Positions 3,421 through 56,290 of a stretch of 56,426 bases of DNA are shown here, piece by piece. Both the position numbers and the translations under genes were made by a program. Position 1 is the first letter of the stretch; each line of letters starts with the position of its first letter. The notes below the pieces were generated by a model that was not told where the DNA came from, made no database searches, and was given only the letters and a program-made list of their open reading frames with translations. The stretch lies in contig JBAZHV010000002.1 of the NCBI GenBank assembly GCA_041652155.1, forward strand, positions 1 through 56,426, given 5' to 3'. The stretch comes from Minisyncoccota bacterium (lineage in GTDB: Bacteria; Patescibacteriota; Minisyncoccia; Minisyncoccales; JAQTVQ01).

Positions 3421-3504
3421 TATCTCTTTGATTTTATATTTGTCTATAATCAGCATAACATAATTCAAAGTATAAATACAAGTATTTAATTAACTTTGTA
3501 TAAT

Positions 3505-6935: not shown

Positions 6936-6998
6936 AGGGAGTCGGACCCTCGTCTCAACCTTGGGAAGGTTACATAATAGCCGTTATACGACACCCGC
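6928..6998 (-). tRNA. tRNA-Gly (anticodon CCC), 71 nt, no encoded CCA
   Basis: Folded by hand. Acceptor stem GCGGGTG/CACCCGC. Anticodon arm TAACC-TTCCCAA-GGTTG. T arm GAGGG-TCCGACT-CCCTT. The discriminator is U. The D stem is weak, and the T loop has C where the conserved T55 is expected. Confidence 0.7.
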
Positions 6999-7113
6999 GT
7001 TGGTCCGCCGAAGCGCTTCGCGCGAAGGCGACCCTACGCTCACCTTAGCTCGGAGCTAAGGCGAGCTACGGCGGGGCGATGCCCGCCTCGCCGATATCTC
7101 TTTTGCTTTATTT

Positions 7114-9663: not shown

Positions 9664-11299
9664 AGAGCTTGAAACGGCTTAAAATGCTTGAAATAAAGGT
9701 CTTGGCTTCCGGCGAATTGAAGAATATCGTTATACAAAAGTATAGCAGAAAACCAAACCCTCCAACAACTGCGTCCTGCCAAAAGCTCCCCAAAAATCCG
9801 GACCCGAAAAAGACGGCTAATTTCGGCAACGAATAATAGCCAAAAACGAAAAGCACAAAGGCCGCCGGCAGCATTTTTGCAAAAGACCCCCCTATTTCCT
9901 TAATGCCGAAATCGCCGATCTTTCGATAAAGGGAAAACATAAAAAGGAAGAACTGGAATATCAAGGCTATTAAAAACGCTAGGCACAATGACAGCATCTG
10001 CAAACTGGGCGACGGTTCAAAACCGAAGATGCTTCCAAGGAACGAAGAAAACGCGTTGGCTTTTCCGGCCAAAGCGACGAAGCCGGCGGCCAAGGCGATG
10101 TTGACGGCCATGAATAAAGCCGACAGGATCACCGGCGTTTTGGTGTCTTTGACGCTGAAAAATCCCCTCAAGATCAACGGCATCAGGCACTGGGGCAAGA
10201 TCGCCAGAGAATAAATTCCCAAGCAAGCCGAGGTCAGAGCGGCATCCCTCATGCCGAACTTGCCGGACTGCAAAAGGAATCCCACTATCGGATCTTTCAG
10301 AAGATAAAATAATATTCCGATCGGCAAAGAGATATAAAGAACCTGGCGGAAAGCCGTGGAAAAATTTTTATAAAATTCTTCTTTCTTTCCGTCTGTCCAA
10401 TTTTGGGAAAGCGAAGGAAAGGCGGCCATTGCCAAAGAGACCCCGAAGATGCCTATCGGGAAAAAAGAAAGGTTGTAGGAGAGCTTGAATATCGCCACCG
10501 CTCCCGCGCTGATGCCGGAAGCGACAGCCGTGATCGCCATAAAATTTATCTGGTTCAGAGAGGCGGCCACAGAGCGGAAGAATGTCAAATTAAGTATTTT
10601 AAAAACCGCCGGATGCTTGAGGTCGAAAAGAGGGCGGTATTTGAAACCGCATTTTGAAGCGGCGGGAACCTGAATAAGCAAATGAGCGGCCGCGCCGATG
10701 ACAACTCCCAAACCCGCTCCGAAGATGCCGAATTTAGGCGCCAAGAATATCACTCCCAAAATTATGCCCAAGTTATAGAGCAATGGAGCCAGAGAGTAAG
10801 CCAAAAATCTGTTGAAATACTGCAAAATCGAAGAGAGGAAAGAAGACAGCCCGAAAATTATCGGGCTCAAAAGCATCAGCCTGGTCAGGGCAACCGTTTT
10901 GGATTGCGCCGCCGGATCAAAACCGGGAGCGATCAGATGGATGAACTGCGGGGCGAAAAGAAAAAGAACCCCGGATATCGCCAAAGTGAAAACCAAAAAA
11001 GCGTTCAAAACATAATTGGCCATCTCCCATGCTTCCTCCTTGTTTTTCGTGTAATGGTCGGAAAAAACAGGCAAGAAAGCAACGACGATGCTCCCGGCAA
11101 AAATGATATTATAAACAAAATCCGGCACGCTGAAAGCGGCATAATAGATGCTAAGGTCCAGACCGGCGCCGAAGGTTTTAACCAGGATCCTGTCGCGCAA
11201 AATGCCCAAAAGTTGGCTGAAAAATACAGCAACGGCCAAAATTATCGCAGCCTGGTTCACGCTTTTAGACTTGGAATTCAAAATTTTTCTGATAGGCAT
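9644..11299 (-). CDS. murJ: Lipid II flippase MurJ/MviN
   Basis: Polytopic membrane protein with the LLGILRDRILVKTFGAG N-terminal signature. Confidence 0.85.
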   Translation of the reverse strand: MPIRKILNSKSKSVNQAAIILAVAVFFSQLLGILRDRILVKTFGAGLDLSIYYAAFSVPDFVYNIIFAGSIVVAFLPVFSDHYTKNKEEAWEMANYVLNAFLVFTLAISGVLFLFAPQFIHLIAPGFDPAAQSKTVALTRLMLLSPIIFGLSSFLSSILQYFNRFLAYSLAPLLYNLGIILGVIFLAPKFGIFGAGLGVVIGAAAHLLIQVPAASKCGFKYRPLFDLKHPAVFKILNLTFFRSVAASLNQINFMAITAVASGISAGAVAIFKLSYNLSFFPIGIFGVSLAMAAFPSLSQNWTDGKKEEFYKNFSTAFRQVLYISLPIGILFYLLKDPIVGFLLQSGKFGMRDAALTSACLGIYSLAILPQCLMPLILRGFFSVKDTKTPVILSALFMAVNIALAAGFVALAGKANAFSSFLGSIFGFEPSPSLQMLSLCLAFLIALIFQFFLFMFSLYRKIGDFGIKEIGGSFAKMLPAAFVLFVFGYYSLPKLAVFFGSGFLGSFWQDAVVGGFGFLLYFCITIFFNSPEAKTFISSILSRFKLYGRKTN

Positions 11300-12194: not shown

Positions 12195-12629
12195 ATGAAC
12201 CACATCTGGTCTATTCTATGCCAAAACTCTTCCGTAGATGAAGAGACTAAGTCACTAAGCATTTTTAACTGCCTGGAGCAGGGAGAAATTACAATAAAAA
12301 AAGACGACTTAGAAAAGAGGGACAGGATTATAATCCCGATAGCATTTGAGCTGATCAGCCTTTGGACAGTTGACGAGCAAGATAAAGATAATAAGCTGGA
12401 AATAAAGATCGAATTATTGGATCCTGACGGCAGCTTATTAAATAGTTCTGAAAATATCTTCGACGTCAAAGAAAATTTTCCGAGGCTTAGAAGCAGAATA
12501 AAATTGAATGGACTGTCTGTCACGAAAAATGGAAGATATACCTTTAAGGTTTCCCAAAAAGACCAAGTCCAAAAAAAATTTAAAACAGTTGCCAATATTC
12601 CTCTGGATATCAAATTGCAATATACATAG
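12195..12629 (+). CDS. Hypothetical protein, third gene of the toxin-antitoxin transcription unit
   Basis: Clean 144-aa ORF starting 20 nt after the antitoxin gene and followed by a terminator. No motif was recognised. Confidence 0.55.
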   Translation: MNHIWSILCQNSSVDEETKSLSIFNCLEQGEITIKKDDLEKRDRIIIPIAFELISLWTVDEQDKDNKLEIKIELLDPDGSLLNSSENIFDVKENFPRLRSRIKLNGLSVTKNGRYTFKVSQKDQVQKKFKTVANIPLDIKLQYT

Positions 12630-12645
12630 ATATAGACAGCTATTT

Positions 12646-12672
12646 AAAAAGACTGCCCGAAGCAGTCTTTTT
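12646..12672 (+). terminator. Intrinsic terminator (aaaaagactgc-ccgaa-gcagtcttttt)
   Basis: GC stem with a T run directly after the stop of the 12195-12629 gene. Confidence 0.65.
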
Positions 12673-12683
12673 AATTTACAAAA

Positions 12684-13101
12684 ATGCCAAGCAGGTAATA
12701 AGCCGAATTCTGTATCACCACGCCGTAGCTTCAGCGAAGGCGGGTATTACCCCGATATCGTTAAAGCGGCGGGTACTAGCGATCATCAATCTTGGCCTGG
12801 AATTACTCCCAGGCTCCAGCGAGCTACTTTTCTTTGAACGCTTGCGCGTTCAAGTTTGCTCTTGCATCCGGGCAAGGATTTTGCCGTTGCACCCCCCATA
12901 TCGCTATGGGAATATCCTCGAGAAATTCCCGAGGCTGCCGAGCCTTGCGGCTAAGCACGTCACTGTTCGCACCTCTATCCTCGCGGACGAAGGGGGTTAC
13001 CCTCTGCCTGTAATCCGGCCCCGAAGGATCGGAATGGATGTTCGGACTTTCCTCCCCGTTCCCCTTGCGGAAAACGGAGCGATCGCCTGCCTGCTTGGCT
13101 T
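12684..13101 (-). ncRNA. rnpB: RNase P RNA, bacterial type A
   Basis: On the minus strand, GGAGGAAAGTCCGAAC (13055-13040) is the P4 5' strand and ACAGAATTCGGCTTA (12713-12699) is the P4 3' strand. P1 pairs gccaagcagg (13099-13090) with cctgcttggc (12695-12686). A GGGTGCAACGGCAAA element is also present. Confidence 0.9.
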
Positions 13102-14361: not shown

Positions 14362-15792
14362 TTATAAAGACTTTTCAAAAGCCGAAGCGGCTTGGAACAT
14401 TTTATCTTCGCGGAAAGGTTTGGCGATCAGTTGCATCCCCACGGGAAGGCCGTTGACCCAGCCGGCAGGCAAAGATAGCCCGCCCACGCCGGCCAAATTG
14501 ATAGAGATGGTGTAGATATCGGAAAGATACATCGAAAGCGGATCGTCCATCTTTTCTCCGATCTTGAAAGGCAAGGTCGGCGACACCGGGGTCAAAAGGA
14601 TATCGGCTTGCGAAAGAGCATTGTCAAAATCATTTTTTATCAAAGTCCTGACCTTCTGCGCCCTCTTGTAATAAGCGTCGTAATATCCCGAAGACAACAC
14701 GTAGGTGCCGAGCATTATTCTGCGCTTCACTTCGCTGCCGAAATATTTCTCGCGGCTCTTAACGTAAACCTCGAGAAGGGTTTTGGCATCGGGATCGTTA
14801 ACTTCGGACGAGCCGTATTTTATGCCGTCGTATCTGGCCAAATTGGCGCTAGCTTCGGCGGTGGCGATGATGTAATAACAAGGCAAAGCATACTCGGTAT
14901 GAGGCAAACTGACCTCGACGATCTTGGCTCCCATATCTTCGTATTTTTTGATAGCCTCTCTGATGACCTTCTCAACATCCTTGTCCATGCCTTCGATAAA
15001 ATATTCTTTAGGAATGCCGATCCTCAAATTTTTAAGATCAAGCTCCTCAATTTGAGTGGGAGTGTCCAAAGAAGTGGAATCAAGAGGGTCTTGTCCCTTG
15101 ATGGCGTTGTAAACCAACCCGCAATCGGCGGAATTTTTGCCGAAGCATCCTACCTGGTCGAGAGAGGAAGCGTAAGACATCACTCCGTAGCGGGAAACAG
15201 CTCCATAGGTCGGCTTCAATCCGGCCACTCCGCAAAAAGATGCGGGCTGTCTGATCGAACCGCCGGTATCCGAACCCAAAGCAAATTTGCAAAAATCAGC
15301 AGCCGTGGCGGCGGCCGATCCTCCGGAAGATCCTCCCGGCACGCGGCTTGTGTCTCTTGGGTTTTTAGTGGTAAAAAATGCCGAATTTTCGGTGGAAGAC
15401 CCCATCGCGAATTCGTCCATATTGGTCTTGCCCAAAATGACCGCTCCCTGGTCTTTCAATTTTTTGATGACCGTCGCGTCGTAAGGCGCGACGTAATTCT
15501 CCAGGATCTTCGTGCCGGAAGTGCATTTGATCCCGTCAACAAGGATATTGTCTTTGATGGCGCAGGGAATTCCCGCGAGCATCGGAACCTCTTCGTTGCC
15601 TTTGGCGATCAGTTCATCGGCCAGTTTGGCCTGCTTCAAGGCCAGATCTTCGGTCACGGTTATAAAGGCGTTTATTTTTTGGTCCTCTTTTTTGATCTTG
15701 GCCAGAAAAAATTCGGCCAATTCCACGGCGGAAAAATCTTTGTTGACCAAACCCTGATGAAGTTGTTCGATAGAAAATTTTTCTGGTTCCAT
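14362..15792 (-). CDS. gatA: Asp/Glu-tRNA amidotransferase subunit A
   Basis: Amidase signature [13 protein letters not shown]...[16 protein letters not shown]. Confidence 0.95.
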
Positions 15793-25555: not shown

Positions 25556-26401
25556 TTAACGCTTGGAATATTTTCCGATATCGGCCGAGTAATGATCTTT
25601 GATCGCCGCCGATCCCAACGCTTTATTGTAAATGCGGACAGTATCTATAAACCCTCTGAAGTAACAACCGTCGCTTCTCCTTCCGATCCAAACAGGGTTC
25701 GTAGAAGTGGCCACCGTCGAAATACTCCAAGCCTGCTTGAGCTGGCCGTTGATATAGGTTTTCAAAGTTCCCGAAGAGATGTCTCTGACAACGACCCACT
25801 GGGTCCAGGCCAGCGGAACTTCCCCTCCCGGAGCATTATATTTGTAAACGGCAGAGCCGTTATAAAACCTGTAGCCTTCTACTCCTGCGTCATCGGGCAG
25901 GTCCATTATCCACCCCGGCGAGTAAGTGGCGGCTATGGAATATCTACCGTTGGTCGCGATAGCGGTGTCCGGTTTGAACCAAGCTTCTATGGTAAAACTC
26001 TTGTCTCCTATCTCCAGACTGGGATCGGCGCCGCAATCAAGATATTGGGCTGAACCGCTATACTGCAAACATCCGCCTTCGATGCATTGCTCGCTGGCGG
26101 CCCAAGACGGAGCGTGGCCCGCGAGGTTGCAATTATTGGACCCCCAGGAATCTTTAGCAGTAACGCCGGAAGCGTCATCAGCCCCCCATTCGGCAATAAT
26201 GGAATACGACATTGAGGCCCTCATCGAGGTCGAAAAACTTTTAGCCTTGGCTATTCTTGCGCTGTCGGTAGCGCCGCCCAGGTTTACTACGATCAGTCCC
26301 GCCAAAATGCCAATGATGGCTACGACTACCAGAAGCTCTATAAGGGTAAAACCTTTGGCAAGTTCAAAATTCCGCCCCCTGAATTTTATTTGAGAGATCA
26401 T
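25556..26401 (-). CDS. Type IV pilin-like protein with a LamG (concanavalin A-like lectin) domain, solitary copy
   Basis: Prepilin motif AKG|FTLIELLVVVAIIGILAG. CIEGGCLQY and TVRIYNKAL are LamG-type motifs. The likely start is MISQIK at 26401, although the ORF track starts at 26494. Confidence 0.8.
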   Translation of the reverse strand: MISQIKFRGRNFELAKGFTLIELLVVVAIIGILAGLIVVNLGGATDSARIAKAKSFSTSMRASMSYSIIAEWGADDASGVTAKDSWGSNNCNLAGHAPSWAASEQCIEGGCLQYSGSAQYLDCGADPSLEIGDKSFTIEAWFKPDTAIATNGRYSIAATYSPGWIMDLPDDAGVEGYRFYNGSAVYKYNAPGGEVPLAWTQWVVVRDISSGTLKTYINGQLKQAWSISTVATSTNPVWIGRRSDGCYFRGFIDTVRIYNKALGSAAIKDHYSADIGKYSKR

Positions 26402-26537
26402 ATGTTTCCATTTTACCAAAACCAGCAAAAAAATAAACCGCGCCGAAAACTTCCTTTGTCGTAAAACAGATGAAGCCAGACGAACTGTACGCATTTAATA
26501 AAACGCCTCGCACTTTCGTGCGAGGTGTTCAAAACCC

Positions 26538-37910: not shown

Positions 37911-39824
37911 TTAAAATTTAACCACTTGGCCCGGATCTATTTTGCCGGTCTTGCTTTTTTTATCCGATTCGCAGAACTCTTCCTCGTCTTGGCCCTCGAA
38001 TATGATCTTTTCATCTTCGATATTATCTCCATCTATAGCATCCGATCCTTCATCTCTTTGGCCGCCTTGGTCTTCCATCTCGATGGAATCTTCTTCGGGC
38101 TCTTCCTTTTCCTCTTTATTCTTGTTAACGATGTCTTTCAAAACCGAACGCAGATCGTCGAGCTTGATCTCTTTTTTCTTTTTTTTGTATTTTTCATCTT
38201 CGCCGCCATTGGCTTGCGCCGGATCTTCTTTCTTTTTGGCGTTAGGATTGAAAAGAACCGGATCTCCCTGCGTAGCTTCAGCCAAAGAAAGGCCTCCTCC
38301 GGCTAATCCGTTGAAGGTTCTTTTTTGGCCGGTCAGCCGGGCTTCCAGCCTTTCTTTCTCGATGCGTTTTCTGCAAGCCGGGCACAAAACAGGCCTTTTC
38401 CCGTCGGGCTTGAATGTTACGCGAATTTTTTTCTTGCAAATGTCGCATTGGGCGTCGTAAAGTTCAAACGGTCCCTCGGACTGCTTTTGGCGCTGCTGGC
38501 CGGGGCCTTTTTCCTCTTCCGTGATCGCGAGCTGGGCCAGATTGGCAATATCGTTTTCAACTGTCTTTTTCGGATTGCTGTAGGTTTTGCGCGACCAATC
38601 GATGATCTCGTTTTTAAAAGATCTCAAGGGCTTGATCTCCGGAAGCAAGGTCTGGGCGGAAAAAGGCCTCGACGACACCCCGTCGATCATCAGCTTGACG
38701 TAAATATTATATTTGGACAGGTTCACCAGATCGGTTGCCATAAATTCCGGAGAGAACTCCTTCTCCAAAAATTCCGCGTCCTCGGCTCCCACTCGAAAAA
38801 GTATCATCGTGCCGACGTTGCCGAAAACAGCGTCTTTGACCTTGCTGTTCCTCCCGCTTCCCGTTCCATCTTCCAATTGCGAGAGATACTGGTTGGCCAG
38901 GATCAGGTCCAAACGGTACTTGCGGGCCTCGGACAAAATGTTGATGAAAGATTCTGTCGCGAAATTCTGGAACTCGTCAACATACATATAGAAATCTTTT
39001 CTTTGCTCTTCGTCTATCTCCACTCTGGACATCGCGGCCAATTGCAATTTGGTGATCAATAAAGCGCCCAAAAGGCGCGAGTTATCCTCGCCCATCAAAC
39101 CTTTGGAAAGGTTCATTATCAATATTTTCTTGCCGTCCATTATCTCGCGCATATTGATGGTGGACTTCGGCTGGCCGATGATATTTCTGATAAGCGGAGC
39201 CGAAACAAACTGGCCGATCTTGTTTTGGATGGCCGCCGTGGCTTCGACTTCGTATTTTTGCGCATAACGGGCGAACTCTTTCACCCAAAAAGCTTTGACC
39301 ACCGGATCTTGCAGTTTTTCAACCACTTCCTGCCTCCATTCCGCGTCGGAAAAAAGGCGGTTGATAGAGAGCAAAGTCGAGTCCGGAACTTCGAGCAAGG
39401 CCAAAATAGCGTTGTTTAAAATATATTCCATTCTGGCGGACCAAACGTCCGGCCAGATCTTTTTGAAAACGCCCATCAAACCGCCCGCAACCAAATGGCG
39501 GTATTCAAGGGCCACGTTTTCCATAATGTTAAAAGCGATGGGCCAATCCAGATCGGACGGATTGAAATAGACCACGTCTTTAATGCGGTCTTGAGGCACA
39601 AAATCCAAAAGGTCCATTGATGCTTCTCCGTGCGGATCTATAAAACCGATCCCCTTGCCGTCCTTGATATCCTGGACAGCCATATTCTTAAGCATCTCCG
39701 TCTTGCCCATGCCGGTCTTGCCTACCACATAGAGATGGCGGCGGCGGTCATCGGTCTTTATGCCGAACTTTTTGGACTGGTTGCGAAAATTGGTTTGAGC
39801 AAAAAAATTTATCTGTTTGTCCAT
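37911..39824 (-). CDS. VirD4/TraD/TraG-like P-loop ATPase lacking an N-terminal TM domain. It has a C-terminal CxxC...CxxC zinc ribbon and a long acidic/lysine-rich tail.
   Basis: Walker A is VVGKTGMGKTEM and Walker B-like is FYMYVDEFQNF. The zinc ribbon is CDICKKKIRVTFKPDGKRPVLCPACRKR. Confidence 0.7.
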   Translation of the reverse strand: MDKQINFFAQTNFRNQSKKFGIKTDDRRRHLYVVGKTGMGKTEMLKNMAVQDIKDGKGIGFIDPHGEASMDLLDFVPQDRIKDVVYFNPSDLDWPIAFNIMENVALEYRHLVAGGLMGVFKKIWPDVWSARMEYILNNAILALLEVPDSTLLSINRLFSDAEWRQEVVEKLQDPVVKAFWVKEFARYAQKYEVEATAAIQNKIGQFVSAPLIRNIIGQPKSTINMREIMDGKKILIMNLSKGLMGEDNSRLLGALLITKLQLAAMSRVEIDEEQRKDFYMYVDEFQNFATESFINILSEARKYRLDLILANQYLSQLEDGTGSGRNSKVKDAVFGNVGTMILFRVGAEDAEFLEKEFSPEFMATDLVNLSKYNIYVKLMIDGVSSRPFSAQTLLPEIKPLRSFKNEIIDWSRKTYSNPKKTVENDIANLAQLAITEEEKGPGQQRQKQSEGPFELYDAQCDICKKKIRVTFKPDGKRPVLCPACRKRIEKERLEARLTGQKRTFNGLAGGGLSLAEATQGDPVLFNPNAKKKEDPAQANGGEDEKYKKKKKEIKLDDLRSVLKDIVNKNKEEKEEPEEDSIEMEDQGGQRDEGSDAIDGDNIEDEKIIFEGQDEEEFCESDKKSKTGKIDPGQVVKF

Positions 39825-39953
39825 TTCTGCTTTTGAAGAAATTAACGGCTTTGTAAAAATATGTCCGAGAGGACAAATTCTGAAAACCTCTAAAAGACGC
39901 TGCCTTTATAAGCGCGATAAAAATCGGGCTTAGAGGTTTTTAATATATTACCA

Positions 39954-41273
39954 TTATTCTGTCGGCAATTCCAAGGGAGCTATGCCTTTTTTGGTGGCGA
40001 TCCTGGGCATTATCGAACCGGGGATGGATAAAATGCCGGGGAAATGGAAAAGAGTGGCCATTTCTTCGGTATTCAAGATAAAGGTCGAGCCGCTGGCCGG
40101 CTTGCGCTTCAAGTAATTTCCGAACATATCTTTTTTGCGCAGATAAGTTTTCTGTTCCGCGAACAAAGCGAAAGCCGGAGCTCTTACCGAAGTCGCGCCG
40201 AAAGATTTGATGGCATTAAGGCTTTGAGTGGCAAACTGGGCCAGAAAGATAGCCGGGATGGTTTTTGAAGAACTGGAAAAAACATCTTTTTTCGCAACGT
40301 AAACCGCTCTTATCCCGACCGAATAAGCGCATTTGGAGACTTTATCTTCGATCGCTTTCAAAACATCCTTTTCTCCGGACGTCAGATGAGGCGTTTCCGC
40401 CGCCGCCGCTGTCGGTCCGCCGGGGATATCTCCAAAAGCCGCGAAGTCAAAAGCCTCTTGGATAAGCGGTTTGAAAACCGTCTTTCCTGGCCGCTTCATT
40501 ATTTTATTCACTTCTTCTTTTCCGCGATCGACATAATTATTATCGTCGTTAGAGACGGGGGTTATCATAAATTGCATCCATATCTGCTCCCCTTTTTCCA
40601 AACGGACCATTCCTTCTATAAGCGAAGAAAGAGGATCTATCCTTTCCCCTTCTTCGAGCCCCTGGCTCTCTTCAAAAAATTGGCTGTAAGTTTTTATAGG
40701 GTAAACATCCGGCCTGGCGAGAGTGTAATCCGATCCCCATACGTCCCATTCTTTGTTGGGAATGTCCGCCGGAACATCCTTGGCGTAATCAGGAACTTCG
40801 CATATCTCGATGCCGGCGTATTGGGAGTATATCGCCGATTCTATGGCCTTTCTCAATCCTTTAAGAACTCGAATATAAAAATGGGGGTTGCCGTCCACGC
40901 TGGCTATTTCCAAAGAAAAACCGACCGGAACTTTTCCGTCGATCCATTTGTCTTTGAAGCCGCTTGGAGAATCGCGAGTGCCGAACAAATTGGAAAAAAC
41001 ATTTTCCATAGCCTTAATGGGCTTCAGTTCTTCACGGGGTATCTTCAACTCCAAAGTAACAAATTCCAATTTGTCCGCCCATATGCCCTGGATAAAATCC
41101 AAATACTGCCCCTTCACAATACTAAAGAGGATGAACGGCGGAATGATCCACCAAAAAAGTTTGAGAATTTCCCAAAGGAACAGAAAATAAGGAACGCTAG
41201 CCGCGATCGCCGCCGAAGCGAATGGAGCAATGGGCTGGGGAAGAGATTGTAATATTGTTTGGTCCAAGGCCAT
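39954..41273 (-). CDS. Hypothetical membrane protein encoded directly upstream of the VirD4-like ATPase
   Basis: N-terminal TM helices (ASAAIAASVPYFLFLWEILKLFWWIIPPFILF) followed by a soluble domain of about 370 aa. No motif was recognised. Confidence 0.6.
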   Translation of the reverse strand: MALDQTILQSLPQPIAPFASAAIAASVPYFLFLWEILKLFWWIIPPFILFSIVKGQYLDFIQGIWADKLEFVTLELKIPREELKPIKAMENVFSNLFGTRDSPSGFKDKWIDGKVPVGFSLEIASVDGNPHFYIRVLKGLRKAIESAIYSQYAGIEICEVPDYAKDVPADIPNKEWDVWGSDYTLARPDVYPIKTYSQFFEESQGLEEGERIDPLSSLIEGMVRLEKGEQIWMQFMITPVSNDDNNYVDRGKEEVNKIMKRPGKTVFKPLIQEAFDFAAFGDIPGGPTAAAAETPHLTSGEKDVLKAIEDKVSKCAYSVGIRAVYVAKKDVFSSSSKTIPAIFLAQFATQSLNAIKSFGATSVRAPAFALFAEQKTYLRKKDMFGNYLKRKPASGSTFILNTEEMATLFHFPGILSIPGSIMPRIATKKGIAPLELPTE

Positions 41274-47381: not shown

Positions 47382-47747
47382 AATAAAAAATTCCTCAAAA
47401 TTTAATAAATCTACGAGATAAAAGCTTTTTTAAAGGTTGCGAAACATCTTTCCGGCAAAATTGGGCCGAACCTCTGTTTGCCCCGCCGGTTTGACACGAC
47501 CTGTTGTATTATTGTATAGCTTTTAACTTAATCATTGTATAGCTTTTACGAAAAAAATCAAAGAGAGGCTTGTTCTTTCCGCTCTATCCTCTCTCCCTCC
47601 GCCAAAAAATAAAAAATCGCCCCGAAAAGACGATTTTTAATTTTATAAAATTACTGATTTTACCCGCGACCTTTCAAGGTCAAAGATCGCCATTCCGCTA
47701 AAACGCTCGGACAATATTGCCAAAAAAATCATGGCCAGCCCGGCTTC

Positions 47748-47778
47748 ATCTTCTGCAGAGATCAGATCTCTGCAGAAG
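47748..47778. repeat. Palindromic element atcttctgcagagatc-a-gatctctgcagaag (14-bp arms), copy 1
   Basis: Read directly. The partner is at 49918-49945. Confidence 0.8.
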
Positions 47779-47822
47779 CAAATTGTCTTTTATGCGCGCC
47801 TCAAAAAGCAACACTTCGCCTT

Positions 47823-49838
47823 TCACATACCGGAAAGAATTTGGGAAAAAATTGTGATACCATCCCTTCCGTCTTTGCCGTTATATCCAGAGTATCCGCC
47901 AATGCCGCCGCTGCCGGGTCTGCCGCCAATTCCGCCAATTCCGCCAGAATTTGAGATCGTACCGGAATTAGTTGCCGTACCCTTGGAAATGATAAATATA
48001 TCGGCTCCATCTTCACCATTGCCGCCATTACCTCCGTTGCCATTATAAACAAGGATAGTACCTCCTGCATAAGAAGCCGAGCCGCCATTTCCTCCATTTC
48101 CTCCGTTGCCGCTCTGGGCATTTATTGTTCCGGTAAAATTAACGGTGCCTCCGACATACATAACAAGCGGTATCGCGGCGCCGGTACCATTCCCGCCGTT
48201 CCCTCCGTTGCCACCAGAAGAATTTTTAAAACTGCTGGCTGCCCCTCCATTTCCGCCGTTCCCCCCGCCGAGGCGTCCGGCTCCTCCGTTCCCTCCGTTG
48301 CCACCAATACCGCCGCTGCCATAGTTGCCGACAGTGGCGTCCCCTCCGCTGCCACCCGCGCCGCCGATACCGGTGAACCCGTCTCCTCCATTACCGCCGT
48401 CCCCTCCGCTGCCGCCATTTGTGGATGACTGGCAGGTATCGCCGTTTCCTCCATTACCGCCGTTTGCGTAACCCCATCCTCCATTACCGCCAGGACCAGT
48501 TTCGCAACCATTTCCAGGATCAGAACCTTTTCCTCCTTTTCCTCCGCTGCCGCCGCTGCCGCCGTTAACTCCTGAAGAACCGCCAGCTCCGCCGCCACCC
48601 TTACCGCCGCCCGCGCCGCCATTGCCGCCGTTGCCAATATTATAACCTCCACCACCTCCGCCGCCGCCGGCAACACCGCCAGAAGTGCCAGCTGCTCCAT
48701 TACCGCCGTTGCCGCCGTTAAAACCGCTGGCGGAACTGCCGGGAAGGCCTGTCGCATTATATGAATTTCCTCCACCCCCGCCGCCGCCAGTCACAGAATT
48801 ACCGCCGCTGCCCGCGCCGCCGCCGGAGGCACCGCCTGATCCATTGCCAGAGGAAATAGATGTTCCACCATTGCCACCGGGCCAGTATCCTTGCCATCCG
48901 CCAAACCCGCCGGCGCCGCCGTTATTAGGAGAAAAAATTGTTACCGGGTTACCGCTCGTGACAGTATCGCCGCGGCTGGTTGTAAAAGAAAAAGGCTTTG
49001 ATCCGCTGGTGACGAGACCTCTTAGTTCGATCGTGCCGGCGATCGTCGCATTGCCTGAAACGTTGATCAAGGCAGGGCCGGTTCCGGTAAAGGCCAATGT
49101 CGCGCCCGATGAAATATTAAAAGAAGAAAAATTATAGACATGGCCTAGCGTGAGAGTTGTGACGCCGGACGTTACGCTGAAAGCTCCGTCGGCCCCTGTT
49201 CCTCCGAGAGGCCCGCTGCTGCTCCCCGCTCCGCTTGCTATCGTCGCCCAAGTGCTCGAAGCCACGCAGGAAGTGCCGATGCAAAGCTGGCCTCCGTTGC
49301 TGATCACCACTTTGCCGTCCGACTGGATGGTCAGAATGTGGCTGCCGTAGGAATTGGCAAAACGATCGGCATAGGTGTATGCGTCCAAATAAAGGTTACT
49401 TCCGTCGGCCAAAAATCCGAAGGAGGATTGGCCGTCCTCGTTATCCACCAGCCGAAAGGAAGGGAGAGCGCTTTCAACGACAGAGTCTTGATAGCCGTAG
49501 CTGCTCTGGAGAATATGGAATTTGGAATATACGGATGGAGCGCCTGTTCCAACCCCGACAGATCCCGCCAAGAGCGTTTGCCCGGCAGGGTTGACGTAAT
49601 ATGCCGTGTTGTCTGCGTCGTAGAATATGGAAGCGGTTAAATTTCCTTGGACAGCCAAAGATCCTGCTTTGGTTTGGGCAATGCCTCCTGTATTCAGCGG
49701 GGCGGCCACGGTTACGGGCATGGTGCCGGTGGGTTCTGTCCAGGCCAGGGCGATGTAGCCGGCCGAGAGGGACAGGACCAGGACCGAGGCGAGGACGGCC
49801 ATGATCCGGGGATTATTGATGCGAAAAAAATTGCGCAT
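47823..49838 (-). CDS. Secreted or anchored Gly/Asn/Ser-rich repeat protein (GGNGGNG-type tracts)
   Basis: Signal/anchor sequence [26 protein letters not shown] structured N-terminal region contains [15 protein letters not shown]. The C-terminal half is dominated by GGxGGxG repeats. Confidence 0.75.
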
Positions 49839-49917
49839 AGGATCAAATTTAATTAAACGGGATCTGATTATTTATTTCCCATATTTTAGCATAAAAAAAA
49901 TTTCAATAATACTAGCT

Positions 49918-49945
49918 ATCTTCTGCAGAGATTAGATCTCTGCGG
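49918..49945. repeat. Palindromic element atcttctgcagagat-tag-atctctgcgg, copy 2
   Basis: The first 15 nt are identical to 47748-47762. Confidence 0.8.
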
Positions 49946-49951
49946 TTATTT

Positions 49952-50917
49952 TTATTTGCTGGAAAAAGAATTCTGGCCTGCTTCCGCCAGCCTTTGCTGA
50001 TAATCTCCTTTTGTTATCGATCCTTTGGCCAGAAGTTTGTCCAAACCTGCGATATAATTTTGGCGGACGGCCGAGGCGGTAAGGGCGGCGCCGTAGATGC
50101 GGAATGTGTCCATGCTTCCTTGAAAAGCCGGGCCTCCGCTATATGATCCTATATAAAGATTCCTGGCTGGATCGGACAGAACCAGATTGGATAAAGATTT
50201 TGTCGCGCCGAGCTGGGTTCCGTTGATATATAGTTTTGCTTGAGACGAACCTACTGTCAGAACAAGATGATACCAAACGCCGTTGCTGAAAGTGTAAGTG
50301 TATCCTCCAAAATTATTCGGGCCGCCGGCAAACCCTCCGGCGGAATTTCCAAAACAAGTATAATTAAAATTATTCCCGTTATTCCTGTTGTCGTAAGTGA
50401 ACCACCAGCCTGCGTTGGGAGCGACGGAATCGGGATACCCTTTCGAAGCGATGGCCCAAAGCCTGCCCGTCGAGCCGGAATAATCAATGCCGGTAAATTT
50501 GACCCAAGCTTCCACGGTTATCGCGCTGGCAAGGTCGAGACTGCCGCTTGCGCCGCCGTTGCCGCAGTTAAGATAGTCTGACGTGCTGAATTGCAAGCAT
50601 CCTCCGTCAACGCAATCCGCGCCTGATATCCAAACCGGGCTGCCGGAAAAATTACAATTATTTTTCGGGCTGGCCCAGCCGTCCGAGACAACCGTCCCCG
50701 ATCCATCATCGAACCTCCATTCGGAAACAGAGGAAGCGAGCAAAGAGCTTCTCATGGAATTGGAAAAAACTTTAACTTTGGCCAAGCGCGCGCTGTCTGT
50801 GGCTCCGCTCAAATTAACCACGGCCATGCCGGCCAAAATACCCACTATGGCAACGACGATCAGAAGTTCGATCAGGGTAAAACCGAATTTAAATTGTCGG
50901 CTATTTTTTAACGCCAT
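49952..50917 (-). CDS. Type IV pilin-like LamG-domain protein (array member 8, most downstream)
   Basis: KFG|FTLIELLIVVAIVGILAG, CVDGGCLQF, FRIYGAAL and the C-terminal helix NYIAGLDKLLAKG. Confidence 0.85.
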   Translation of the reverse strand: MALKNSRQFKFGFTLIELLIVVAIVGILAGMAVVNLSGATDSARLAKVKVFSNSMRSSLLASSVSEWRFDDGSGTVVSDGWASPKNNCNFSGSPVWISGADCVDGGCLQFSTSDYLNCGNGGASGSLDLASAITVEAWVKFTGIDYSGSTGRLWAIASKGYPDSVAPNAGWWFTYDNRNNGNNFNYTCFGNSAGGFAGGPNNFGGYTYTFSNGVWYHLVLTVGSSQAKLYINGTQLGATKSLSNLVLSDPARNLYIGSYSGGPAFQGSMDTFRIYGAALTASAVRQNYIAGLDKLLAKGSITKGDYQQRLAEAGQNSFSSK

Positions 50918-51797
50918 ATTCTAAATTTATTTCCGATAATTTTTGCCAATATTCTTCCTGGGTAATTTGGCTGCCGGCCAAAAATTTTTCCAGTCCCGCG
51001 AGATATTTTTCCCGGATTTCAAAGGCACTTAGCGCCTGGGTATAAACCTGAACGTCGTCTATGAGGCCTCCAAAAAATTGATTGCTCTGATGCTGTCCGA
51101 CCCTTAAAGGCAGGTCAAAATTGGTCAAAAGGCCGACGCTGGTTCCGATAAAATAAGATTTGCCGTCAAGCCATATCTTCACCGCTCCGGATCCGTCTTT
51201 AGTTAATCCTACTAAATACCATTTCCCGGCGGAAAGATTGACTGTGGCAGTACCTGAAGGAACGCTGGACCTGTCGTTATTCCAAACGTCCGTGTAAAGG
51301 TTCCCGTTGACGGTCCAAAGGCCGGCAACGGCTCCGCTGGCGCTTTTTCTGTGCACGATGATCGCGCGATAACCGTCAAGGAGGGCGGGCTTTATCCAAG
51401 CCAGATAAGTGAGCTGGCCGGGGAACTGCAAATTGTCCGCGTTGGTAAACTCGGCATATCCGCTGGTTCCGTCAAGGCTCAAAGAATAATGGCCGGCGTC
51501 ATTGTAGATCGTGCTGGTGGAATAAAACGCTCCGGCATAAATGACGCCATTATTGGCATTACCGGAAGAGTCACTGGCGTTCTGGCTGTCGAATGTCCAT
51601 TCTCCGGCCAAAGCGGCAGCCATAAAATGCTTGGCCCCAGAGGCGAAACTCTGGCTCTTCGCTACCCTCGCGCTCTCGGTCGCCCCGGACAAATTCACAA
51701 CAACCATCCCGGCCAAAATACCCACGATAGCAATGACGATCAAAAGTTCGATCAGGGTAAAGCCAAATTTAAATTGTCTGTTATTTATTTTCGGCAT
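50901..51797 (-). CDS. Type IV pilin-like LamG-domain protein (array member 7)
   Basis: KFG|FTLIELLIVIAIVGILAG and DDVQVYTQALSAFEIREKYLAGLEKFLAG. Confidence 0.85.
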   Translation of the reverse strand: MPKINNRQFKFGFTLIELLIVIAIVGILAGMVVVNLSGATESARVAKSQSFASGAKHFMAAALAGEWTFDSQNASDSSGNANNGVIYAGAFYSTSTIYNDAGHYSLSLDGTSGYAEFTNADNLQFPGQLTYLAWIKPALLDGYRAIIVHRKSASGAVAGLWTVNGNLYTDVWNNDRSSVPSGTATVNLSAGKWYLVGLTKDGSGAVKIWLDGKSYFIGTSVGLLTNFDLPLRVGQHQSNQFFGGLIDDVQVYTQALSAFEIREKYLAGLEKFLAGSQITQEEYWQKLSEINLEYGVKK

Positions 51798-52701
51798 AGG
51801 TTAAATTCAGGTTCGATAATCTTTGCTCGTATTCCCCCTCCGCCATAATGCCCTTGGCCGACAACCGATCCAGTCCCGATAAATATTCTTCCCTGATCCG
51901 GGAAATTGTCAGCTGCTTGTTATAAACCCTGACCCCGTCGGCCAGTCTGGGATAACTTCCTCCTCCCATCCATCCGTTCCCTGTCGGCGCGATCGGAGCT
52001 TGAGTGTTTGAAGTCGCATAATAGCTTTCCTCTTTTCCGTCTATATATATCTTGGCGTTCAGGATATTATTTATCTCCCCTCCCGCAACGACAAAAACTA
52101 TGTGATGCCACTTGCCGTCCCGCAGATCGGTCCTGCCGTATCTGTAACTTGAGCCGTTCAAATAAATAAGCGGTTTGTATTGGGTCCAATAGCATGGGGA
52201 AAAGGCGGGAAGAGAACCGCTGCCCGCGCCGAACGAGATCAAATATCTGGCGGCCGATCCGGACGCGGAAGAAGGTATATTAACCCAAGCTTCGACGGAA
52301 TAATCTCCGGACAGAGATATCTGGTTGCCCATCGACATATAATCATCCGCCCCATCGAATTGCAGACACCCTTCCGATACGCAAGACGAACCGGTCCTCC
52401 ATCCGTCGGTAAGATCAAAATTAAAATTGTTAAGAATTCCGTTGTTGGTTCCGACCGTATCGGCAACGGCAGTGCCCGACCCCTCGTCAAAATTCCACTC
52501 CGAAACCCGGTTCATCAACAAAGAGCTTCTCACCGAGCTGGAAAAAACTTTAGACTTGGCGATCTTCGCGCTATCGGTCGCCCCCGACAAATTCACCACA
52601 ACCATCCCGGCAAGGATGCCGATGATGGCGATGACCACCAGGAGCTCGATGAGCGTGAAGCCTTTTTGGGTTTTGGATTGTTGGTTATTCGTTGGCTGCA
52701 T
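51781..52701 (-). CDS. Type IV pilin-like LamG-domain protein (array member 6)
   Basis: QKG|FTLIELLVVIAIIGILAG, CVSEGCLQFDGADDY and VRVYNKQL. Confidence 0.85.
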   Translation of the reverse strand: MQPTNNQQSKTQKGFTLIELLVVIAIIGILAGMVVVNLSGATDSAKIAKSKVFSSSVRSSLLMNRVSEWNFDEGSGTAVADTVGTNNGILNNFNFDLTDGWRTGSSCVSEGCLQFDGADDYMSMGNQISLSGDYSVEAWVNIPSSASGSAARYLISFGAGSGSLPAFSPCYWTQYKPLIYLNGSSYRYGRTDLRDGKWHHIVFVVAGGEINNILNAKIYIDGKEESYYATSNTQAPIAPTGNGWMGGGSYPRLADGVRVYNKQLTISRIREEYLSGLDRLSAKGIMAEGEYEQRLSNLNLTYAENK

Positions 52702-53587
52702 AAGTTGAATTCAGATCGGCTAATCTTTTTTGATAATCCTCTTTTGTAATCCGGCCTCCGGCCAAAAGCTTGTCCATGCCGGCGATATAATTTTCGCGGA
52801 TGGCGGAAGCAGGCAGGGCGGAATTGTAAATGCGGACTCCATCAATTGTACCGTTAAAAAAATAACCTCCATCAGTGTATCTGCCTATAAATAGATTTTT
52901 ATTTGTGGCGGAAAGTTTATTCGTATTAGCTATTTCTTTATCGAAATTGCCATCGATAAATATTTTCGCTTTATCATCTGTATCGCTAAAAGTTGCAACA
53001 ATGTGGTGCCAAGATTTTAAACTAATTATCGAATTAGATATGCATTCGGGTGCCCAAGCGCCAATTCTCCACATTATTCTGCTAAAAGGGCTAGTCGAAG
53101 CACCTGTGATAACGAATTGGCTTGGGCCATCATGATCGATTATTCTCATATATGCCGTTAAATCCGATGATAGATAAAGCCACATTTCAACCGAAACTGC
53201 ATTTATAATATTCAAGCTGGGGTCGTTGCCGCAATCTATATAATCGTTGATCCCATCAAGGCTTAAGCAGCTGCCGGAGATGCAATCAACTTTATTGGTT
53301 TTCCAAGTGGGGGAGTTAAACAACGTTCCATTGTTATTCATTCCCGAAATATCATTTGCTGTTGTGCCCGTTCCTTCATCAAAATTCCAATCGCCGACCA
53401 AGCTTGTCGCCATGCTGTGCTGAATGCTCGAAGAAAAATTTTGCCCCTTAGCAATCCTCGCTTTATCGGTCGCCCCCGACATATTTATCACGACCATCCC
53501 GGCCAAAATACCGATGATGGCGATGACAACCAGGAGCTCGATGAGCGTGAATCCTTTTTTAATTTTAAGATCATTTACCGATCGCAT
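52685..53587 (-). CDS. Type IV pilin-like LamG-domain protein (array member 5)
   Basis: KKG|FTLIELLVVIAIIGILAG, CISGSCLSLDGINDY and VRIYNSALPASAIRENYIAGMDKLLAG. Confidence 0.85.
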   Translation of the reverse strand: MRSVNDLKIKKGFTLIELLVVIAIIGILAGMVVINMSGATDKARIAKGQNFSSSIQHSMATSLVGDWNFDEGTGTTANDISGMNNNGTLFNSPTWKTNKVDCISGSCLSLDGINDYIDCGNDPSLNIINAVSVEMWLYLSSDLTAYMRIIDHDGPSQFVITGASTSPFSRIMWRIGAWAPECISNSIISLKSWHHIVATFSDTDDKAKIFIDGNFDKEIANTNKLSATNKNLFIGRYTDGGYFFNGTIDGVRIYNSALPASAIRENYIAGMDKLLAGGRITKEDYQKRLADLNSTYAANE

Positions 53588-54473
53588 AATTTGAATTCAA
53601 TTCCATTGATCTTTTTTGGTATTCTTCTTTGTTTATCCGGCCTTCGCCCCAAAATTTTTCCAGGCCCGCGAGATAATCATTGCGAACCGACGAAGCGGTA
53701 AAAGCTTGGCTGTATATTTTGACTTCGTCAACCAGGCCGTTCATAAATTCTCCCGAACCGTTCCGGCCGATTTCGACATTATTTGCGTTGGAAATCAGCA
53801 GCCCCGAAGCGGTAGCGGCGGAGCCTATGCTTTTCCCATCCAGATAAGCTTTCAACAAGGCGCCGTCATAAACCAAGGCAACATGATGCCAAACATTATT
53901 GGTAAAAACGGTCGAGACCACAGCCGTATGGCCGGCCGCATCATTAATGCGAAAGCCCATATTCGGCCCCTCGCTATCCCTCGTGGCTCTCATCTCAAAA
54001 ACCGATGAGGTGTGGTATCCTTTAGAGATCAAAGTTCTGTAAGCCGCAGAAGGACGGGACTTGAACCAAGCTTCCACGGTCAAAGCGCTATAACCGTTGG
54101 CCAGAGTGTTGTTGACCGATACATAACTGCTTCCGTTGAAATCCGCTGAATAATTTCCCGCTATTCCGCTCCCAAAAGGCGCCTCCGTGGAATAAGCCAA
54201 TGCCCCGACAACGGTTCCGTTGTTGTTATTCCCTGAAGAGTCGTTGGCGTTTTGTCCGTCAAAATTCCAGTTGGCCGGCATATTCAAAGCCATACTGCGC
54301 TGAATGCTGGAGGCAAAGGTTATCCCTTTGGCAATTCTCGCCCTGTCCGCCGCCCCCGACATATTCACGACCGCCATCCCCGCCAGAATGCCGATGATCG
54401 CGACGACAACCAAGAGCTCGATGAGCGTGAAAGCTTTTTGCATTTTGGATTGGCGGCTATTTTCTGGCTGCAT
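53571..54473 (-). CDS. Type IV pilin-like LamG-domain protein (array member 4). It has Ala rather than Gly at position -1 of the cleavage site.
   Basis: QKA|FTLIELLVVVAIIGILAG and VKIYSQAFTASSVRNDYLAGLEKFWGEG. Confidence 0.85.
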   Translation of the reverse strand: MQPENSRQSKMQKAFTLIELLVVVAIIGILAGMAVVNMSGAADRARIAKGITFASSIQRSMALNMPANWNFDGQNANDSSGNNNNGTVVGALAYSTEAPFGSGIAGNYSADFNGSSYVSVNNTLANGYSALTVEAWFKSRPSAAYRTLISKGYHTSSVFEMRATRDSEGPNMGFRINDAAGHTAVVSTVFTNNVWHHVALVYDGALLKAYLDGKSIGSAATASGLLISNANNVEIGRNGSGEFMNGLVDEVKIYSQAFTASSVRNDYLAGLEKFWGEGRINKEEYQKRSMELNSNYAIGK

Positions 54474-55377
54474 AAGTTGAATTTAGATCGGCCAATCTTT
54501 GCCGGTAATCTTGATCCGTTATCTGATTATTGGCTAAAAGTTTATCCAGGCCGGCGAGATAATTTTCGCGAATGGCGGAAGCGGGCAGAGCGGCGTTGTA
54601 GATGCGAACCTCGTCAATAAAAGCATTGAGCGTAGCACCATTCCATATATCTCTCCCTATTTTGGCTGTCCCGCTAGGAGATGCGGTCACGCTAGAAATC
54701 GTTCCCGTATAACTAACGGGTTGCAACACTCCATTTATATATATTTTTGACCTATTCGCGTTTCCCGACTGCGTTCCGTCGAACACGCAAGTAATAAGCT
54801 TCCAATCATTTCCTGATGGTATATCCATTCTAGCATAATTAATTGCCCCATTGTTTGCGAATAACAGCCCTACGGAACTGTGCCAGGCAATTTCTATCCA
54901 TACGCTTGAAGAGTCCGACTGTTTAAAAAATAAAGCGCCGAATCCGCTGGTTCTTTTTACCCACCCTGAAATAGTCAATTGAGAAACTCCATTGACGGAA
55001 GCCATATCGCCGATATCCACATAGTCGTTCGCTCCGTCAAATTGCAAGCATCCTTCGGACACGCAGGACGAACCGGTCCTCCAGCCGTCGGTTGAATCAA
55101 AATTAAAATTGATGAGGGATCCGTTATTGGCTCCTACGGTATCGGCAACGGCAGAGCCCGCCACTTCGTCGAATCTCCATTCCGAAACTCGATTCATCAG
55201 CAAAGCGCTGTGGAGAGAAGAAGAAAATGCTTTGGATTTTGCCACCCTCGCGCTCTCCGTCGCCCCCGACATGTTCACCGCAACCATCCCGGCCAGAATA
55301 CCGATGATGGCGATGACGATAAGAAGCTCGATGAGGGTGAAGCCGGTTTTGATATTTTGATTATTCATGCGCCGCAT
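54457..55377 (-). CDS. Type IV pilin-like LamG-domain protein (array member 3)
   Basis: KTG|FTLIELLIVIAIIGILAG, CVSEGCLQFDGANDY and VRIYNAALPASAIRENYLAGLDKLLANN. Confidence 0.85.
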   Translation of the reverse strand: MRRMNNQNIKTGFTLIELLIVIAIIGILAGMVAVNMSGATESARVAKSKAFSSSLHSALLMNRVSEWRFDEVAGSAVADTVGANNGSLINFNFDSTDGWRTGSSCVSEGCLQFDGANDYVDIGDMASVNGVSQLTISGWVKRTSGFGALFFKQSDSSSVWIEIAWHSSVGLLFANNGAINYARMDIPSGNDWKLITCVFDGTQSGNANRSKIYINGVLQPVSYTGTISSVTASPSGTAKIGRDIWNGATLNAFIDEVRIYNAALPASAIRENYLAGLDKLLANNQITDQDYRQRLADLNSTYAARK

Positions 55378-56290
55378 AGTTTAAATTTAAGTCCGACAGC
55401 CTCTGTTCATAATTTTGCAAAGCAATTTCCCGGGAGGCCAAAAGTCTGTCCAATCCTGCGAGATAATTTTCGCGGACGGCGGAAGCGGGCAGGGCGGCGT
55501 TATGGATGCGGACATCGTCTAATACTCCTTTAAAATAACGCTCCAAGCCGGAGCTTCCAAACTGCAAGTTATAAAATCCATTGCCGATGGTCAGGCTGTT
55601 GGAAGAACTCGAACCGACGGCAACGCCATTTTTATACCATTGAAAAATATTTCCGGACCTCGAAAGAGTCAAATAGTTCCACTGGTCTTGAGCCATATTC
55701 GCTTCCACAGTATATGCAATGCCCCAAGGGCTGCCCGCCACATCATCGGCCACGAATCCGATATCTCCTCCGTGAGAAATATTCGTCGTTATATCCCATC
55801 CCAAATTATAACCGCTTCCTTTGTGAGTGCCCATTACGGCCCGATAATTTCCCGTGTTGACGATATTCGGTTTGAGCCAAAAAGAGATGGTGAAATCATT
55901 TTTGCCTTCGACTGGCGCATCGATATTTCCCATGTCGATATAATCATTCACGCCGTCGAAACTCATCGAATACTGTCCGGCTGTGCCGCCGCTCAAAGGG
56001 ACGGTCGTGGTCGCGACGGCTCCGCTGATGGTGCCGTTGTTGTCATTGCCGGAAGAATCGCTGGCATTCTGTCCGTCGAAATTCCAGTCGCCGACCAAAT
56101 TTGTCGCCATACTGCGCTGGATGCTGGCGGCAAAGGTTATCCCTTTGGCAATACGGGCTTTGTCCGTCGCCCCCGACATGTTCACTGTTATCATCCCGGC
56201 CAAAATGCCGATGATGGCGATGACCACCAAAAGCTCGATGAGGGTAAAAGCTTTTTGCGTTTTGGATTGTCGGCTATTCTTCGATTGCAT
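55361..56290 (-). CDS. Type IV pilin-like LamG-domain protein (array member 2). It has Ala at position -1.
   Basis: QKA|FTLIELLVVIAIIGILAG and VRIHNAALPASAVRENYLAGLDRLLAS. Confidence 0.85.
   Translation of the reverse strand: MQSKNSRQSKTQKAFTLIELLVVIAIIGILAGMITVNMSGATDKARIAKGITFAASIQRSMATNLVGDWNFDGQNASDSSGNDNNGTISGAVATTTVPLSGGTAGQYSMSFDGVNDYIDMGNIDAPVEGKNDFTISFWLKPNIVNTGNYRAVMGTHKGSGYNLGWDITTNISHGGDIGFVADDVAGSPWGIAYTVEANMAQDQWNYLTLSRSGNIFQWYKNGVAVGSSSSNSLTIGNGFYNLQFGSSGLERYFKGVLDDVRIHNAALPASAVRENYLAGLDRLLASREIALQNYEQRLSDLNLNYAAHE

Follow-up and report, generated by a model that had tools for sequence, protein, structure and literature searches.

The gene at positions 47823 to 49838 (minus strand) of a 56426 nt stretch of Minisyncoccota bacterium DNA (GenBank accession number JBAZHV010000002.1; assembly GCA_041652155.1; coordinates 1 to 56426, here called the window) probably encodes a Sec-exported surface fibre of Candidatus Paceibacterota, a lineage of the candidate phyla radiation (CPR; Patescibacteria), that resembles the mosaic adhesive trimer (MAT) fibres of Bdellovibrio, carries a glycine-rich tip of the phage-fibre type and would have an adhesive role. 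Four parts make up this mosaic protein: a signal or anchor sequence with an N-terminal module (N-module), a stalk, a neck with a cysteine loop and a head of 460 amino acids (aa) (Table 1). It belongs neither to the pilins nor to the PE_PGRS, PF21722 or Peptidase_S74 families.

The Gly/Asn-rich open reading frame (ORF) of 671 aa, described in the original prediction as lying directly after an array of pilin-LamG genes, was present exactly as stated. It starts with ATG, is intact over 2 kb and encodes a product with 30% Gly, 11.5% Ser and 8.6% Asn. The AWTEPT that follows the signal or anchor sequence (aa 32–37) and two further quoted motifs (aa 72–86 and aa 236–274) were all located, as were the proline-rich shadow ORFs on the opposite (plus) strand (47731–48048 and 48685–49137). 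The frame was taken as real because both halves of the protein have homologues at the protein level. An identical 671 aa protein was assembled in three samples, and contigs from groundwater, landfill and bioreactor metagenomes showed no differences and no indels across the gene. As the sequence is identical in independent metagenomes, the idea of a decaying repeat tract was rejected for this copy. The only DNA-level repeats in the Gly-rich part were 9 nt units in 2–6 copies, short and degenerate, indicating that this part is no recent or hypervariable tandem array. A hypervariable tandem repeat was rejected on these grounds and because repeat-length polymorphism, for which a check had been proposed, was absent, with no length variants among the metagenome contigs. 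The whole protein had no match in Pfam (E≤0.1), NCBIfam or PHROGs, and an Rfam search of the locus found nothing.

The family to which the protein belongs was recognised via its N-terminal part. A search with aa 1–306 identified 15 proteins, the named ones all from metagenome-assembled genomes of Candidatus Paceibacterota, and further scans gave a total of ~19 other distinct loci that share the N-module and the neck. This family is probably restricted to the Paceibacterota lineage and built like the Bdellovibrio MAT fibres. The N-module contains a conserved YYVNPAGQT (family consensus QTK.G.LA..FYDADN..YYVNPSGQT), and in the neck D174, G175 and I179 are invariant and C186 and C191 nearly so. 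The sequence that precedes the N-module has a Kyte-Doolittle peak of 2.16 over aa 13–31 and was modelled by AlphaFold2 (AF2) as a helix at aa 10–30; it is predicted to be a signal that is either cleaved or kept as an anchor.

In the family alignment, the stalk is of variable length, and the sequences become unrelated past the Gly linker at the end of the neck. At least six head types were found: a Cys-rich type ending in IGSY, a type ending in CC(S/R)P, the PF21722 (Gly_rich_2) domain carried by family member P0008, the type seen in P0012, Peptidase_S74, and the window type, which is unique within the family. The N-module is 75–84% identical to that of members with stalks only 26–31% identical, the stalk is 75–81% identical to those of P0002 and P0009, which both carry other heads, and the neck is 67–79% identical across members bearing different heads, which are themselves ~20% identical. 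These module-wise identities are discordant, and the modules have therefore been shuffled independently. Replacement of the tip in situ is exemplified in nature by the SmpB-(33 aa)-gene-ArgRS slot, which in the closely related Paceibacterota genomes L001, L004 and L009 holds three different heads on the same N-module. In metagenome contigs, depth rose 7–13-fold exactly over the N-module (49671–49821), and this module is thus common at the DNA level to many copies or strains, offering a substrate for recombination.

Broken family members were also found, with two loci (L097 and L098) frameshifted after AWTEP and a third (L094) truncated. The frameshift (L097, coordinates 686 to 910; L098, coordinates 5977 to 6201) lies just after AWTEP, gives a 74 aa product and was seen in contigs of two samples; it marks either a pseudogene, or a programmed or assembly-related frameshift site.

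The head (aa ~205–671) is a single conserved domain homologous to the C-termini of proteins that are mostly phage tail-fibre-like. The C-terminal half had been described as Gly repeats, and while its Gly-richness was borne out, it is not a loose repeat. When 1.84 billion representatives were searched exhaustively with phmmer, the head had 85 matches, 16 of them below 1e-30. About 35 homologues align across all 460 aa with 50–57% identity, and the domain is always found at the extreme C-terminus of proteins of 600–1850 aa, with conservation reaching the very end, including the C-terminal strand. The highest identity of the window head to any sampled phage tip is 59%. When a word-indexed search was made with a profile of the head start, only short fragments were retrieved, and the full-length relatives were retrieved via an alignment already containing them. 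The N-terminal parts of the head-bearing relatives match the PHROG tail fiber, tail, host range/adsorption and virion structural families, as well as PF11863 (E217_gp31_N), Laminin_G_3 and PKD in Pfam. Three head-bearing contigs of 19–47 kb that were inspected contain co-directional blocks of ORFans together with genes for a holin, an Amidase_2 endolysin, M23 peptidases and RuvC, and the start module of the head is encoded on 71 IMG/VR viral contigs. Cellular carriers of the domain are few, and include P0017, with MopE/PKD repeats, and P0015, in which it directly follows a signal peptide. In two members of the head family, P0050 and P0065, Trp is found where Gly is conserved (e.g. GTWADGAL, WGWGWGW), and the simplest explanation is that the source, an organism or phage, uses TGA for Gly (code 25, Gracilibacteria/Absconditabacteria) and that these codons were translated as Trp (code 4). 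This would mean very heavy use of TGA-Gly in a Gly-rich gene.

The stalk is linked at the level of sequence to the MAT fibres. A profile of the family matched five solved Bdellovibrio MAT entries in the PDB, 8OND (Bd2133; E 1.7e-9, in three stretches), 8OJN (E 2.8e-4), 8OML, 8ON4 and 8OL4, and the matches pass through the motif GNVGIGTxxPxxKLxV, of which the stalk holds the form GxVGxGTxxP...(K/F)xI. A family member in another species (L085; 723 aa) has the same N-module followed by NTAxGxxSLxxNTTG repeats and a C-terminal Peptidase_S74 domain (E 1.9e-16), and also matches the distal subunit of the S16 long tail fibre (gp37). The S74 domain in this protein implies that the family includes relatives competent to form trimers; the Peptidase_S74 intramolecular chaperone domain (PF13884) was absent from the window protein in the Pfam scan.

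The head is predicted to fold as a beta-capped bundle or solenoid of Gly-rich polyproline II (PPII) or polyglycine II (PGII) helices. An AF2 model made with a 23-sequence alignment (predicted local distance difference test, pLDDT, 83.7; predicted template modelling score, pTM, 0.83) is beta-rich at aa 220–295, confident with neither helix nor sheet at aa ~300–555, and composed thereafter of coils of strands and Gly segments. The beta-helix-like stretch of the original prediction was thus modelled as a confident beta-rich module. Glycine makes up 50% of aa 305–554, as GGX triplets, and in the last ~115 aa Gly triplets alternate with beta-strands (model residues 359–467; pLDDT ~90–96) and do not form a pure repeat. 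The lag-3 autocorrelation of Gly in the head is 0.39, with a secondary period of ~31–34 residues, and in the head alignment Gly columns are 82% conserved, compared with 41% at the intervening positions. The only significant Foldseek matches in the PDB were 7JJV (E 2.6e-6, prob 0.97) and 2PNE (E 0.01), antifreeze proteins of springtails and snow fleas formed of PPII-helix bundles. The gp38 receptor-binding domain and tailspike beta-helices matched the model weakly (gp38 E 0.5), and the best matches in BFVD were uncharacterised Caudovirales proteins with low TM-scores. As all TM-scores are low, the modelled head appears to have no close known structural relative. Searches of PDB sequences with the protein and with a head profile gave only chance matches or artificial Gly-Ser linkers, and no sequence homology of the head to gp38, PF12810 (Gly_rich) or PF21722 (Gly_rich_2) was detected in Pfam (E≤0.1) or in the PDB search.

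Taken together, these features suggest how the protein would work. The signal or anchor would direct export via Sec, and the N-module would presumably hold the protein at the cell surface, followed by the stalk with its MAT-type motif, the Cys-loop neck and an exchangeable C-terminal head. Within the head, the conserved glycines would form a scaffold that displays the variable residues lying between them. On the model of gp38 and the MAT tips, the head would most likely bind a ligand exposed on the surface of another cell, probably the one that this presumably episymbiotic bacterium has as its host or partner. A more specific and tentative proposal, rather doubtful as it stands, is that the tips of MAT-like fibres in presumably episymbiotic CPR bacteria are swapped among paralogues and strains at the neck, and that in this copy a captured phage receptor-binding tip, an undescribed and very large PGII/beta solenoid, recognises the host cell.

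Several points weigh against the main reading, that of an adhesive fibre. TM-scores of the structural matches to the head are low (<0.35), the basis of the PGII assignment is Foldseek together with DSSP and pLDDT patterns of a predicted model, and no member of the head family has a known ligand. The window protein, with one copy of the MAT motif, had no significant sequence match in the PDB when used alone. The AF2 monomer model of aa 1–215 (pLDDT 42.7) was unreliable and was not used for fold searches, so that trimerisation and anchoring are inferred from relatives only. Finally, on three phage contigs the head gene is followed by a small homologous ORF (57–91 aa) that has no counterpart in the window, and folding or function of the cellular head could therefore differ. 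These small ORFs (L011, coordinates 12481 to 12690; L012, coordinates 15117 to 15392; L013, coordinates 9725 to 9898) match one another with blastp E values down to 2e-16 and share the motif ..PETLE(I/V)KG.SDG..SMEFPY(V/I)ET. They had no match in PHROGs and may encode a partner in assembly of the fibre or a chaperone.

A passive role, as a Gly-rich surface layer, matrix or PGRS-like coat, possibly binding ice or minerals without specific recognition, is unlikely. The Gly content and export signal of the protein would suit such a role, and antifreeze PPII bundles were the best structural matches. However, the homologues of the head lie at the extreme C-termini of phage fibre-like proteins, where receptor-binding tips are typically found, and the same scaffold carries many alternative heads, of which this is one, an arrangement more in keeping with recognition than with bulk structure. 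The gene is also single-copy, with no features of a high-abundance coat. The likeness to the PGRS tracts of mycobacteria that had been proposed holds for composition and not for relatedness, as the PE domain (PF00934) is absent and the phylum is different.

A role in a pilus, as a tip adhesin, sheath or accessory fibre co-expressed with the pilin-LamG array, was the proposal made originally, and the character of a secreted surface fibre or adhesin that it gave to the protein was retained here on sequence evidence. Seven genes for pilins with N_methyl and Laminin_G_3 domains lie directly upstream of the fibre gene and in the same direction (49952–56290, minus strand), and at least 12 pilin-LamG genes are present in the full source contig (L006). 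With a gap of 113 nt, co-transcription is conceivable, and LamG and the head domain, both plausible adhesion modules, occur together in one phage fibre (P0061). The adjacency is also kept in L096, a strain variant of the window locus. However, pilin genes were not found beside the family gene at any of the ~13 informative loci among the ~19 others, L096 being the sole exception. Lack of co-occurrence with pilin loci in other genomes had been named in the original prediction as grounds for refutation, and by that measure the pilus idea fails. In L085 (SecA 83% identical), the family gene occupies the same slot before SecA with MurB and HPF-like genes upstream and no pilins. The prepilin motif (PF07963/TIGR02532) is absent from the fibre protein, as the motif scan and the Pfam and NCBIfam searches matched only the pilin genes, and no pilus machinery was found in the 56 kb window. 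Moreover, each of the seven pilin genes shares exactly 17 nt with its neighbour, a pattern to which the fibre gene does not belong.

The 113 nt gap holds a hairpin resembling the repetitive extragenic palindromic (REP) elements, and in L096 an insertion of 813 nt is tolerated between the pilin and fibre genes. This insertion encodes a Y1_Tnp transposase of the IS200/RAYT (REP-associated tyrosine transposase) type and is flanked by the same palindromes. As pilin linkage is not seen elsewhere and the gap is split by a transposase in L096, the adjacency is recent and at the level of strains, with no evidence of a functional unit. The place of the fibre gene beside the pilins looks incidental, the pilus role is improbable, and the fibre gene more probably forms a gene unit of its own.

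An anti-phage decoy or receptor mask is also improbable, and somewhat more so. Here the captured tip would occupy the cell's own phage receptor, or bind virions or competitors, and binding to the cell's own surface would be expected of the tip if Paceibacterota are the hosts of the donor phages. The head is of the phage-fibre type, and an AIPR abortive-infection gene is found elsewhere in the window. However, the context of the locus is SecA/SecDF and pilins and not a defence island, the architecture of the family fits adhesive MAT fibres, and an identity of at most 59% to sampled phage tips gives no indication that the tip was captured recently from a current phage.

A relationship to polymorphic toxins, with a conserved N-terminal delivery part and exchangeable C-terminal effectors, is very improbable. 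The mosaic of conserved N-terminus and variable C-terminus is typical of such toxins, but no immunity-like ORF lies downstream, the 440 nt gap there having only ORFs of ≤46 aa, and at other loci ArgRS or RpsB follow the family gene directly. Toxin and enzyme signatures are absent from the heads, and the window head is predicted to be a structural Gly-rich fold. Equally improbable is that the gene is a non-functional, decaying low-complexity tract or prophage remnant, as, although some family members are broken, this copy has an intact frame, conservation throughout the head, the same sequence in three types of metagenome, and neighbours that are housekeeping and not phage genes.

The palindromes and the Y1 transposase constitute a REP/RAYT system in a CPR bacterium. 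The two copies at the fibre gene are the only ones in the window, where no RAYT gene was found. The palindrome (CTGCAGAGATYWRATCTCTGCAG) occurs singly and as tandem arrays with a period of 32 nt, and copy number differs between related genomes, with two in L001 (coordinates 7037 to 7090) and six in L004 (coordinates 6909 to 7090). In L096, the palindromes are at coordinates 325 to 378 and 1162 to 1185, and the transposase is 264 aa long with the HUH motif NHFHLLL. A cassette-specific signal or attC-like site was considered for the palindromes and rejected, as the same element also occurs in unrelated intergenic regions, forms tandem arrays and borders the Y1 transposase. Short contigs from three runs (X1, X6 and X7) join position 47777 to 49919/49923, skipping the fibre gene, at a depth above that of the local contig. 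These joints were not accepted as proof of excision of the gene, which they leave unproven, as their sides are 21–24 nt and the inserted TTT/TTTTTTC is the spacer of the REP array. They are most simply explained by cross-mapping of REP tandem arrays from elsewhere, and a variant of the locus that lacks the gene is possible.

The remaining features of the fibre locus are included in Table 1; the candidate -10 element listed there was not called by a consensus promoter scan. In the pilin array, the ATG of the next pilin gene is located inside the end of the preceding one, and the 17 nt overlaps suggest translational coupling and growth of the array by unit duplication. A solitary eighth pilin-LamG copy is at 25556–26494. 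Close to the start of the window (1–4000), the gene at 1527–3257 (minus strand) encodes the AIPR family protein (Pfam E 3e-36) in a region with a GC content of 0.32–0.35, compared with ~0.46 elsewhere, and is probably a horizontally acquired defence gene. Further along (37911–41273, minus strand), a gene for a DUF87/TrwB/TraG-like ATPase (637 aa) adjoins genes for a DUF8128 protein (439 aa) and a sigma-70 region-4/HARE-HTH protein, a cluster that may be part of a type IV secretion-like or DNA-uptake apparatus of Patescibacteria.

Table 1. Features of the fibre gene and its flanks, with coordinates in the window
Feature	Coordinates	Strand	Remarks
Complete coding sequence, modular surface fibre protein	47823..49838	-	671 aa; from ORF listing and translation
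Signal peptide or signal-anchor (predicted), aa 1–32	49743..49838	-	Basic n-region, hydrophobic aa 13–31, A-L-A before W33
Family-defining N-module, aa 33–93	49560..49742	-	30 invariant columns among 9 members
Stalk, aa 94–172	49323..49559	-	Opens with one MAT-type fibre motif (aa 92–109); family profile match
Conserved neck, aa 173–205	49224..49322	-	Cys-x4-Cys loop, then Gly linker; junction where heads diverge
Head start, beta-rich module, aa 213–299	48942..49202	-	Most conserved part; short strands, pLDDT 91–97
Gly-rich core, predicted PGII/PPII-helix bundle or solenoid, aa 300–554	48177..48941	-	Mostly pLDDT >85, neither helix nor sheet
Coils, aa 555–671	47826..48176	-	Beta-strands (including TILVYNG and GITIF) alternating with GGNGGNGG segments
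Upstream REP-like palindrome CCGCAGAGATCTAATCTCTGCAGAAGAT	49918..49945		Between last pilin gene and fibre gene, in 113 nt gap
Downstream REP-like palindrome CTGCAGAGATCTGATCTCTGCAGAAGAT	47748..47775		48 nt after stop codon
Possible extended -10 element TGCTAAAAT	49883..49891	-	44 nt upstream of ATG; weak, from reading of the sequence
Terminator-like hairpin and T-run	47612..47638	-	~185 nt after stop codon, before SecA promoter-like site

The finding and binding of hosts by the ultrasmall CPR/Patescibacteria are poorly understood, and type IV pili are reportedly the only factor tested (PMC11623550). The locus is therefore a candidate for a second attachment system in the CPR, consisting of modular, tip-swapping fibres related to those used by Bdellovibrio for prey recognition. 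If the tentative proposal of a captured, host-recognising tip is true, that tip would act directly, at the molecular level, in determining which hosts Patescibacteria choose, and the head family would be among the few natural PGII-bundle architectures and the largest of them. The analysis provides concrete proteins to express for binding tests. The head lacks relatives in Pfam, NCBIfam, PHROG and PDB, and its structure would be of value in its own right.

Among known systems, the likeness to PE_PGRS proteins is confined to a GGxGGxG-type composition, as the window protein begins with a Sec-type signal and the Paceibacterota N-module, whereas PE_PGRS proteins are secreted via ESX. The period-3 Gly pattern is shared with the springtail and snow-flea antifreeze proteins, the only significant structural matches of the predicted model, but these are tiny (81–126 aa) arthropod proteins with no evolutionary or functional link to the head.

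Helix bundles of the PGII/PPII class include domains of the gp38, antifreeze and ALK GlyR types. The class has about half a dozen known natural examples, and gp38 has a PGII scaffold with conserved Gly motifs and variable intervening residues (bioRxiv 10.1101/2023.11.25.568672). Like the gp38 adhesin of T2/S16/PP01-type phages (PDB 6F45 and 9V85), the window protein would present a Gly-rich PGII scaffold at the tip of a fibre, with variable positions between the glycines. However, the window domain is ~2–3 times larger, with a beta-rich cap and alternating beta/Gly coils, and it is fused to its fibre, whereas gp38 is a separate protein. By analogy, the window tip may work like gp38-type PGII adhesins without detectable homology. 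In contrast, the uncharacterised C-terminal domains of phage tail-fibre-like proteins (e.g. P0016, P0023, P0033 and P0040; IMG/VR contigs L014 to L084) are true homologues of the window head, with the same start motif, GGxGxDGxL.V..G.T.L.L.Q.YN(F/Y)..I, and the same C-terminal strand. In the phage proteins the domain is preceded by N-terminal parts of the fibre or virion type (PHROG tail fiber, E217_gp31_N), whereas in the window it follows a Sec signal, the N-module and the stalk.

The MAT proteins of Bdellovibrio bacteriovorus begin with a signal peptide and an N-terminal domain that does not vary and lies near the cell surface, continue as a trimeric fibre and end in diverse tips (Caulton et al. 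2024, PMC10769870), and their S74 and non-S74 subfamilies serve prey recognition (PMC10769870). The family described here likewise has a signal peptide, a family-conserved N-domain, a GNVGIGTxxPxxKLxV fibre and swappable C-terminal tips, and includes both S74-terminated and non-S74 members; Bdellovibrio, moreover, is a bacterium obliged to attach to other bacteria. The differences are that the present family is from a monoderm-like CPR phylum and not a Gram-negative predator, that the stalk is much shorter, with one motif copy in the window protein in place of the long beta-helices of MATs, and that its Gly-rich, PGII-like tip is not among the MAT tips described. The N-module (~60 aa) is set beside the ~130 aa beta-rich MAT N-domain on grounds of position and conservation. 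MAT fibres are trimeric, and from its relatives the window protein may also be a trimer located at the surface. The best-supported reading is that the window protein works like the MAT fibres, and is partly homologous to them.

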